Shown one piece after another: positions 27,962 through 28,831 of a stretch of DNA of 43,930 bases. Within the stretch, counting starts at the first letter, position 1. Each line of letters begins with the position of its first letter. The notes under the pieces are model-generated. The model was given only the letters and a program-made list of their open reading frames with translations. It ran no database searches and had not been told where the DNA came from. Both the position numbers and the translations under genes were made by a program. This DNA is from Escherichia phage phiHAO78-1, in sequence record PP197160.1; one strand, written 5' to 3'.

Positions 27962-28831
27962 TTAGGCTTGCGGTGCAGCAGGCGCAGTAGGCGCTACAGG
28001 AGCCGCTGGAGCCACTGGCGCTGCCGGTGCTACGGGGGCACTTGGTGCTGCTGGTGCAGTGGGCGCAGTGGGCGCAGCCGGAGTGGCTGGAGCTGCGGGA
28101 GCAGTGGGCGCTGCGGGTGCTTGCATAGATTGAATACTCGGGACAGAACCAGCATTCAGCATAATATCCAACGCACTGCCCGGGAAGTCAACTGCTTTGT
28201 ACATGTCCTCCTGAATCCAGTTTTTACTTTTACCATCGTCCTTGACACCTTCGATATACAAGCTATCCCAGGTTTCTTTGGTAGGGTTGTTCCACAAGAA
28301 CAGCTTAATCTCGGAAGCATCCAGCTCAGGCATTTTAATCGGCTCACCGGTATTCGGGTCGAATTTCGGAATCGGACGGATTGCCGCGAGGTCTACAATG
28401 TTGGACTTCTTACCCGCTGCGCTGGTGTGCTCATCCACCGGGAATACAAATGCTTGTCCCAGTCGCTGTGCAGCATGCTTAATACTGCCATCGTAGTTGA
28501 GCTTGTCGAAGAACTTCTTGAAGCCCGCACGCTCAAAGTTGCTGATAGTCATCGGATACGGACGGATACGCTTCACCTCACCGTTCGGGCCGTACACCAC
28601 AATCCCGATACGAACGTTCGCCGCGGCAGGCTTACCGGTAGGCTTACCACCTTTAGTCGGCAGGCGCTTACCAATTTCCACGTACTCAGTAAAGTAACCG
28701 TAGTACTCACCCTTCGGCAGAAACACATCCTCATACGCACCACCCTGGGCGGTCTCAGTCATATCAACTTCTTGAGTTTCAATCGCAGCAGCAACCAAGG
28801 AGTTCAGAGTGTCCAGTACATTCATAGTCAT
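27962..28831 (-). CDS. Hypothetical protein with C-terminal Pro-Ala-rich repeat tail
   Basis: 289 aa; the last ~55 residues are APAAPTAPAAPATPAAPTAP...-type repeats, encoded by an imperfect GC-rich tandem repeat at 27965..28130. Confidence 0.55.
   Translation of the reverse strand: MTMNVLDTLNSLVAAAIETQEVDMTETAQGGAYEDVFLPKGEYYGYFTEYVEIGKRLPTKGGKPTGKPAAANVRIGIVVYGPNGEVKRIRPYPMTISNFERAGFKKFFDKLNYDGSIKHAAQRLGQAFVFPVDEHTSAAGKKSNIVDLAAIRPIPKFDPNTGEPIKMPELDASEIKLFLWNNPTKETWDSLYIEGVKDDGKSKNWIQEDMYKAVDFPGSALDIMLNAGSVPSIQSMQAPAAPTAPAAPATPAAPTAPTAPAAPSAPVAPAAPVAPAAPVAPTAPAAPQA

Follow-up and report, generated by a model that had tools for sequence, protein, structure and literature searches.

A gp21-family protein with a neutral Ala-Pro repeat tail, a probable single-stranded DNA-binding protein of Escherichia phage phiHAO78-1

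The subject of this study was an open reading frame (ORF) at 27962..28831 on the minus strand of the Escherichia phage phiHAO78-1 sequence (PP197160.1), the 43,930 nucleotides of which are referred to below as the window. The ORF is intact from ATG to TAA, has a Shine-Dalgarno sequence (GAGG) 8 nt 5' of the ATG, and encodes 289 amino acids. Judged by its sequence, the product is an orthologue of gp21 of phages phiKMV and LUZ19 (PHA02030, phrog_862). On the basis of family membership, synteny, a predicted structure, and, as the strongest evidence, the tails of homologues, we conclude that it is probably the replicative single-stranded DNA-binding protein of the phage (its SSB), a member of a diverged family with an oligonucleotide/oligosaccharide-binding (OB) fold, carrying a neutral Ala-Pro tail instead of an acidic one. 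A preliminary description of the gene, made from the sequence alone, had been partly correct: an SSB or DNA-binding protein whose tail is flexible and linker-like, as it suggested, is consistent with the synteny, with the OB fold predicted here, and with the SSB-type tips that homologues carry.

Assignment to the family was made by a match to the phrog_862 profile ("unknown function"; E 7e-81, residues 3–273) and by BLASTP alignment with phiKMV gp21 (35% identity, E 8e-45); a close relative in phage SFN6B carries the note PHA02030. A homologue was found by tblastn in 890–923 phage records, the hosts including Klebsiella, Pseudomonas, Acinetobacter, Pectobacterium, Vibrio, Ralstonia, Stenotrophomonas, Rhizobium, Xanthomonas, and Xylella, and an exhaustive phmmer search gave 569 cluster representatives at 50% identity. 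The window protein matched no Pfam family, and the other 71 sequences of a 72-sequence family alignment (A1) gave only noise. The labels given to homologues in database records are inconsistent, among them Fe-S oxidoreductase, hypothetical protein, putative structural protein, and large tegument protein; the label "single strand DNA binding protein" occurs in two pipeline-annotated records.

The window belongs to a Drulisvirus-like (KP34/KPV811-type) podovirus of the Autographiviridae, subfamily Slopekvirinae; most closely related to it are Klebsiella phage KPV811 and the Escherichia phages AV102 and Minorna (92–95% DNA identity over 20 kb). All of its genes are on the minus strand. Upstream of the gene lie, in order, the DNA polymerase gene (30871–33258), a 73-aa ORF, an HNH endonuclease gene, a metallophosphoesterase gene (29061–30095), and a 68-aa hydrophobic ORF; downstream are three small ORFs and then the 5'-3' exonuclease gene (26148–27116). 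The order DNA polymerase, gp21 homologue, exonuclease is common to the window, KPV811, Hope, phiKMV, RSJ2, RSB1, Prado, SBP2phi1, and Bolek. The preliminary description had placed the gene between the exonuclease and DNA polymerase blocks, where T7-like phages often encode SSBs or DNA-binding proteins. This comparison is loose: in T7, gene 2.5 is not located between those two genes, and the relevant gene order is that of phiKMV-type phages. No second SSB was detected among the larger ORFs of the replication module of the window or in the fully annotated relative Hope, in which the homologue of this protein is the only one labeled SSB.

An AlphaFold2 model of the protein was built on alignment A1. 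Its mean predicted local distance difference test (pLDDT) score was 86, and the score exceeded 90 over residues 40–230; structure prediction of the N-terminal region, one of the checks proposed in the preliminary description, gave a confidently predicted OB fold. In the model the protein consists of four parts. The N-terminal arm (aa 1–39; 28715..28831, minus strand), seen in the model and the alignment, has a helix at residues 5–19 followed by a V-D-M-T-E...G-G segment. The arm is acidic (isoelectric point [pI] 4.05; seven Asp or Glu, no Lys or Arg). Residues 28–32 were modeled with lower confidence. The V-D-M-T-E..G-G segment is flexible in the model and conserved; D23, G30, and G31 are invariant or almost invariant in A1. 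The OB-fold core (aa 40–147; 28391..28714, minus strand) has the predicted topology b1-b2-b3-helix-b4-b5, with the barrel spanning residues 41–146 and the helix placed between b3 and b4 (b1, 41–56; b2, 70–80; b3, 86–89; helix, 103–111; b4, 127–136; b5, 142–146). The core is basic (pI 9.8) and contains 14 aromatic residues, a composition that gives indirect support to the predicted binding of single-stranded DNA (ssDNA). The C-terminal subdomain (aa 148–236; 28124..28390, minus strand), delimited from the model and A1, is acidic (pI 4.5), with predicted helices at 185–190, 205–211, and 220–229. It bears the most conserved motifs of the family, PTKETWDSL and SKN(F/W)IQE...GS.L, and the A1 columns for P155, P168, F178, P183, W188, N204, Q207, G218, and S219 are invariant. 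The solved structures nearest to the model, all of them weak matches, are those of ssDNA binders (PrgE, RPA70, LEF-3, PriB, and SSB), and the top six matches of a Foldseek search of the PDB were to PriB, mtSSB, SSB, and SsbB.

The fourth part is the tail (aa 237–289; 27965..28123, minus strand), which has the sequence QAPAAPTAPAAPATPAAPTAPTAPAAPSAPVAPAAPVAPAAPVAPTAPAAPQA and contains 17 in-phase X-A-P triplets. It consists largely of Ala (25) and Pro (17), with 5 Thr and 3 Val, and has no charged or aromatic residue. All 17 prolines share one phase of the three-residue period, forming 16 overlapping PxxP motifs, and the tail ends in a small hydrophobic-Pro tip, ...AAPQA. In the AlphaFold2 model the tail has no secondary structure (pLDDT 45–83); as a fully extended polyproline-II helix it would be approximately 16 nm long. 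A collagen-like triple helix was rejected, because Gly does not occupy every third tail residue. The Pro-Ala-rich repeat tail named in the preliminary description was confirmed; the limits given for its DNA there were 27965..28130, compared with 27965..28123 here.

That description had also reported an imperfect GC-rich tandem DNA repeat. The tail DNA is indeed GC-rich (72% G+C, compared with 50% for the remainder of the gene), but the repeat in the DNA is explained by that in the peptide. Tandem Repeats Finder reported only fragmentary arrays of periods 9 and 18 between 27975 and 28121, with scores of 33–58. The identity of the tail DNA at lag 9 was 0.66, close to the value of 0.627 ± 0.022 obtained for the same peptide with random synonymous codons, and we therefore regard the DNA repeat as a by-product of the repeat in the protein. 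An array produced by recent DNA slippage was rejected, the synonymous sites being scrambled as far as chance allows. Codon usage differed between the parts of the gene. Proline is encoded in the N-domain by CCG (12) and CCT (4) and by no other codon, a pattern that fits a highly expressed gene; in the tail it is encoded by CCC (6), CCA (5), CCG (3), and CCT (3) (Fisher p 9e-5 against the N-domain), which fits synonymous scrambling of the repeat. Over the whole genome, CCC is used least often for proline (36 of 393).

The comparison of repeat copy number between relatives that had been proposed as a check was carried out with nine close relatives. All have the tail in the same frame and with the same ...AAPQA* end, and their gene lengths (807–870 nt) differ by multiples of 9 nt, corresponding to 10–17 XAP units. 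Because the frame and the end are kept while the lengths shift in 9-nt steps, we conclude that the tail is translated. Its copy number varies although the N-domains are more than 92% identical, as expected for a linker. In two records, P0086 (Klebsiella virus 2019KP1 KP1_19) and P0033, a frameshift in or before the GC-rich repeat leads to Arg/His/Leu-rich pseudo-tails; the frameshifts probably reflect mistakes made in the repeat during sequencing or assembly.

A low-complexity tail of 37–136 aa was present in every homologue examined. In 119 homologous tails, 63% of prolines had a second proline three positions further along, compared with 27% in composition-matched shuffles, and the PxxP periodicity had z > 3 in 83 tails. 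Because the tail is universally retained and its periodicity conserved, it appears to be needed. The tails of 145 diverse representatives were assigned to classes according to the 40 final residues and the C-terminal tip. Neutral Pro-rich tails like that in the window were found in 42 representatives and tails of other kinds in 45. Acidic tails were found in 58, or approximately 40%: 9 ended in DD(D/E)xP[F/W/Y], 20 had an LxxLGL tip, and 29 were otherwise acidic. By a separate count, Asp and Glu made up at least 15% of the residues in 58 of 117 delimitable tails.

Examples of the DD(D/E)xP[F/W/Y] tip are P0440 (...DFDDDIPF), P0457 (...VDFDDDIPF), and P0386 (...NDDDIPW); the tip with which E. 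coli SSB recruits its partners is MDFDDDIPF (PMC7145534). A further example, P0085, is 47% identical to the window protein, ends in ...SIDFDDDTPF, and has the synteny of the window: primase-helicase-DNA polymerase-X-exonuclease-endonuclease VII-RNA polymerase, X being the homologue. Both of the tip-bearing proteins that were checked in this way, P0085 and P0457, are encoded in phiKMV-type replication modules, beside genes for endonuclease VII and a T7-type RNA polymerase. Syntenic orthologues with acidic tails also occur in Xylella phage Prado, Ralstonia phage RSB1, and Stenotrophomonas phage SBP2phi1; the tails of Prado and SBP2phi1 contain the motif DDKPPF, and motifs of the form DD(A/G)(I/P)PPF are found within some Pro-rich tails. 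Because its members repeatedly bear the partner-binding tip of SSBs, on a disordered tail behind an OB fold, the gp21 family is most simply an SSB family. The preliminary description had correctly noted that the window protein lacks an acidic C-terminus. As an objection to an SSB this does not hold: with approximately 40% of representatives having acidic tails, some of them ending in DDDIPF, we regard the missing acidic tail as a lineage-specific replacement and not as evidence against an SSB.

A second conserved tip, in which acidic residues are followed by L-x-x-L-G-L (for example ...EEDPLAALGLDQ, P0417–P0458 set), is the one counted above in 20 representatives. It could be matched to no identifiable partner-binding motif.

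Expression of the orthologue in LUZ19 is of the kind that would suit an SSB. Two early or late-early phage proteins exceed all others in abundance, and LUZ19 Gp21 is one of them; the study that reported this left its function open (PMC3604761). Such abundance suits a protein that is needed in stoichiometric amounts. Searches of the literature for an SSB of phiKMV, LUZ19, or Drulisvirus phages gave no functional study other than that 2013 LUZ19 paper.

Several results count against the assignment as an SSB. Binding of ssDNA is a prediction, from sequence and model, and is so for every gp21-family member alike. Neither the SSB families of Pfam nor DUF669 matched any gp21-family member tested; at E <= 0.1 to 10, DUF669 was not found in the window protein, the 71 other A1 sequences, phiKMV gp21, four distant orthologues, or Bolek_p30, and the control, DLP1 gp33, matched it at 1.8e-11. 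Comparison of the family profile by hhalign with T7 gp2.5, the SSB of lactococcal phage sk1, and N4 SSB as single sequences gave nothing significant. With family alignments the probabilities were again non-significant, 1.9% against N4 SSB (with the N-terminal alignment in register) and 0.9% against DUF669; these alignments were shallow and the comparison underpowered, and the positive control, N4 SSB against DUF669, failed as well with the same shallow alignments (0.6%). Expression of LUZ19 Gp21 alone arrested growth and lowered transcription and translation by 20–25% but left thymidine incorporation unchanged, a pattern that is not the obvious one for an SSB (PMC3604761). Finally, the tail has no Asp or Glu and thus no acidic partner-binding tip of the SSB type, and the mechanism for the tail that is set out below is one that we infer.

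If the protein is an SSB, its basic OB core (aa 40–147) would coat ssDNA at the phage replication fork. The acidic N-terminal helix or arm (aa 1–39) may bridge neighboring monomers on the DNA, by analogy with PrgE (PMC11137577), and the acidic helical subdomain (aa 148–236) would form the third part of the architecture, before the tail. The (X-A-P)17 tail would stand in place of the disordered linker and acidic tip of classical SSBs. In this lineage of Drulisvirus, phiKMV-like phages, and their relatives, an acidic tail with a DD.PPF or DDDIPF tip would have been replaced by a neutral, extended, polyproline-II-like spacer in which, with three residues per turn, all of the tail prolines would lie on one face. 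The length of the tail appears to drift by three residues at a time and to be little constrained, which is what a spacer would be expected to show. Most likely, then, the tail is a spacer or tether that tunes ssDNA packing and cooperativity or presents PxxP or tip motifs to partners in the phage replisome. A more specific proposal is that a widespread lineage of phage SSBs lost the acidic tip entirely and that a somewhat rigid polyproline-II array, with up to 16 overlapping PxxP motifs, became the element of interaction or cooperativity; the motifs might dock, for example, on OB or SH3-like surfaces of neighboring SSBs, of the phage polymerase, or of the helicase. We consider this proposal doubtful, and the PxxP-OB model for the linker of E. 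coli SSB, which it resembles, is itself disputed (PMC7145534).

The protein could instead, or in addition, be a single-strand annealing or recombination mediator that forms an Exo/annealase pair with the 5'-3' exonuclease. The gene directly precedes the exonuclease gene in phiKMV and lies four genes upstream of it in the window, the annotation of T7 gp2.5 names annealing as well as ssDNA binding, and DUF669 homologues have been described as distant relatives of annealing proteins (PMC9145550). No annealase fold was found for the window protein, so annealing as the sole function is not favored, and an annealing role would be compatible with an SSB, as it is in T7 gp2.5. We regard this alternative as unlikely.

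A second possibility is that the protein acts primarily as a host-takeover effector that shuts down host physiology and happens to be encoded in the replication module. LUZ19 Gp21, expressed from a single copy, caused immediate growth arrest of P. aeruginosa and a drop in transcription and translation of 20–25%, DNA synthesis being the process left unchanged (PMC3604761). N4 SSB, which may be a distant relative, is also reported to activate the host RNA polymerase. Overproduction of a foreign SSB would, however, also be expected to be toxic; the family and its synteny are conserved across very different hosts, which is untypical of host-specific takeover proteins; and the predicted OB fold together with the DDDIPF-type tips of homologues points to DNA metabolism. 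We consider this explanation quite improbable.

Still less probable is a replication initiation protein, the name given to the NCBIfam family NF046043 (NGO0469 family). That profile does match the OB region of several gp21-family members (Prado, 1e-17; SBP2phi1, 9.5e-14; P0116, 8e-8; phiKMV gp21, 6.5e-4), with scores of 19–64 bits that are all below the curated cut-off of 75 bits, and it did not match the window protein at E <= 0.1. The only basis that we found for the name is a weak guess, made in 2007, that relied on BLAST identities of 26–32% with a nanovirus Rep and a 'primase' along some 100 residues (PMC1931599). The region matched is an OB fold, and the abundance of the protein and the SSB-type tips of the family fit an SSB better than an initiator; we reject this reading.

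The preliminary description had mentioned envelope-associated proteins, and an envelope, structural, or 'tegument' protein with a Pro-Ala tail that crosses the periplasm or the capsid, like the hinges of TonB or OmpA, would agree with the likeness of the tail to Pro-rich spacers and with the GenBank labels 'large tegument protein' and 'putative structural protein'. We reject this reading as very improbable: no hydrophobic segment or signal peptide was detected, the highest 19-residue hydropathy being 0.97 and inside the tail itself; an acidic helix forms the N-terminus; the gene belongs to the replication module and not to the structural one; in LUZ19 the orthologue is produced along with the late-early or middle proteins, ahead of the capsid protein (PMC3604761); and matches in a PDB sequence search were confined to the Ala/Pro low-complexity residues 225–289, except for a non-significant match to troponin C (E 2). 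The label 'large tegument protein', a herpesvirus name, is an artefact of low-complexity similarity with no Pfam match behind it. The label Fe-S oxidoreductase, carried by many records, is an inherited annotation that we reject outright: the window protein has no cysteine and so no cluster ligands, 89 of 117 homologues lack cysteine as well, and no oxidoreductase family of Pfam or NCBIfam was matched.

Two conserved elements flank the gene. Immediately upstream is a block of approximately 50 nt that includes the ribosome-binding site (28832..28882, minus strand; CCTGCATCTGCAC(G/A)TAAAT...TAAACGAGGAC..TAATTAT). It is near-invariant in nine relatives, even those with a different preceding gene. 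Its core, CTGCATCTGCA, was found again on the sense strand at 21479–21491 (minus strand), just upstream of the head-tail connector gene, and in phiKMV a phage promoter is annotated directly 5' of gp21. From its sequence and position the block is a candidate promoter for the phage RNA polymerase, or a leader. The other element, 24 nt past the stop codon, is a GC hairpin (GGCCCC-loop-GGGGCC; 27923..27938, minus strand) with an invariant stem and a variable loop in eight relatives. An intrinsic terminator at this site was rejected, because the sense strand has no following U-run; a terminator scan picked up the hairpin on the opposite strand only, and its 71-nt context folds no better than shuffled sequences (z -0.68). 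The hairpin may form the 3' end of the mRNA or stabilize it, or it may act as a terminator of transcription by the phage RNA polymerase.

Other features of the neighborhood were recorded as well. An antisense ORF of 308 codons (27968..28894, plus strand) covers the whole gene. The 68-aa ORF between the phosphoesterase gene and this gene (28883–29089, minus strand) is strongly hydrophobic, with two or three likely membrane segments; at the same spot, relatives have hypothetical ORFs of 52–57 aa. Three HNH endonuclease ORFs lie in the replication module (30098–30490, 34603–35040, and 36703–37170, all on the minus strand). Hope and SFN6B have one directly upstream of the gp21 homologue and KPV811 has none there, a variability of position that suggests mobile homing endonucleases. 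Toward one end of the window, 42920–43626 contains short tandem repeats with periods of 9–12 nt, for example CCCAGAGCTT (4.8 copies) and CCAATGCTAA (4.4 copies), and at the opposite end there is a run of 16 C (17–32); these are probably features of the genome termini or the early region.

Podoviruses of the phiKMV, KP34, and Fri1 types are among the most used therapeutic phages, and no recognized SSB is listed for their replication modules. If the assignment proposed here is true, it fills that gap, offers an explanation for the abundance and toxicity of LUZ19 Gp21, and corrects hundreds of annotations. One type of DNA-binding domain that is followed by a DDDIPF tip, by other acidic tips, or by a variable (XXP)n array would amount to a natural experiment on SSB tails, in which the role of linkers and tips is directly testable by tail swapping. 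Should the array prove to be an interaction element, it would represent in nature, and in amplified form, the contested PxxP-OB model of E. coli, and it would show that tail modules (DDDIPF, DDPLxxLGL, and (XXP)n) are swapped within one SSB family to change between host and phage partners.

Of the known systems compared, phiKMV gp21 is the closest, agreeing with the window protein in its position between the DNA polymerase and exonuclease genes, in its layout of N-terminal arm, OB core, and C-terminal subdomain, and in having a neutral, Pro-rich tail with PxxP periodicity. Its tail is longer (approximately 95 aa), contains more Val and Gln, and is less regular (Pro at lag 3, 0.50 compared with 0.94); the tail in the window is the most regular X-A-P array among the individually tabulated tails.

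The comparison with the DUF669 proteins and N4 SSB is more distant. The Aeromonas phage protein Bolek_p30, published as a DUF669 protein, is syntenic and shares 36% identity with the window protein (E 3e-41). A Foldseek search of BFVD with the model returned gp21-family members, Xp10 37L, and DUF669-named proteins with E values of 5e-6 to 1e-4. DUF669 was linked to the characterized N4 SSB by Kazlauskas et al. with 98% HHsearch probability, and both were argued to be diverged OB-fold SSBs of viruses that have no other SSB (PMC4889955); for HK620, Hutinet et al. report SSB behavior of its DUF669 protein in vitro (PMC5928155). The AlphaFold2 model of N4 SSB is co-linear with that of the window protein, having an N-terminal helix, a Gly-rich low-confidence segment, an OB fold with an intervening helix, further helices, and a disordered tail, and differs from it by an extra beta-hairpin at 150–187. 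Judged from these models, fold and architecture are weakly shared with the DUF669/N4 group, and the gp21 family is probably related to that group. Like DUF669 proteins, gp21-family proteins occur in phages with no other recognized SSB, whereas DUF669 tails are described as acidic (PMC4889955) and the tail in the window is uncharged. The DUF669 protein gp33 of Stenotrophomonas phage DLP1 (L020, 424–1170, minus strand) has a 115-aa neutral Gln/Pro/Gly-rich tail with GGAWGGQ repeats and no acidic tip; neutral low-complexity tails are thus not unique to the gp21 family.

PrgE of plasmid pCF10 (PDB 8s4s) is a phage-derived, atypical OB-fold SSB with 7% identity to the window protein; at 128 aa it lacks the C-terminal subdomain and the Pro-rich tail. 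T7 gp2.5 (PF21265) and Enc34 SSB are likewise OB-fold phage SSBs, and a role equivalent to theirs in the Autographiviridae replisome would be expected for the window protein, which neither matches the T7 gp2.5 family in profile or structure (PF21265 / PF10991) nor has an acidic tail ending in Phe. As to the tail alone, Ala-Pro-rich linkers such as those between the domains of 2-oxo-acid dehydrogenase E2 are similarly uncharged and are expected to be extended, flexible, and tolerant of changes in length; they join two folded domains, whereas the segment in the window is C-terminal and has a strict period of three.

E. coli SSB is not homologous to the window protein in sequence and resembles it only weakly in fold (Foldseek E approximately 0.02), its DNA-binding region is smaller (112 aa, compared with a predicted 236), and it bears the acidic tip that the window protein lacks. 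In both proteins, however, the OB domain is followed by a low-complexity, Pro-containing linker of approximately 50 residues (56 aa in E. coli SSB). The E. coli linker has three PxxP motifs, of which one, PAAP (PMC7145534), is the repeating unit of the tail in the window, and the E. coli tip, DDDIPF, also ends some members of the gp21 family.

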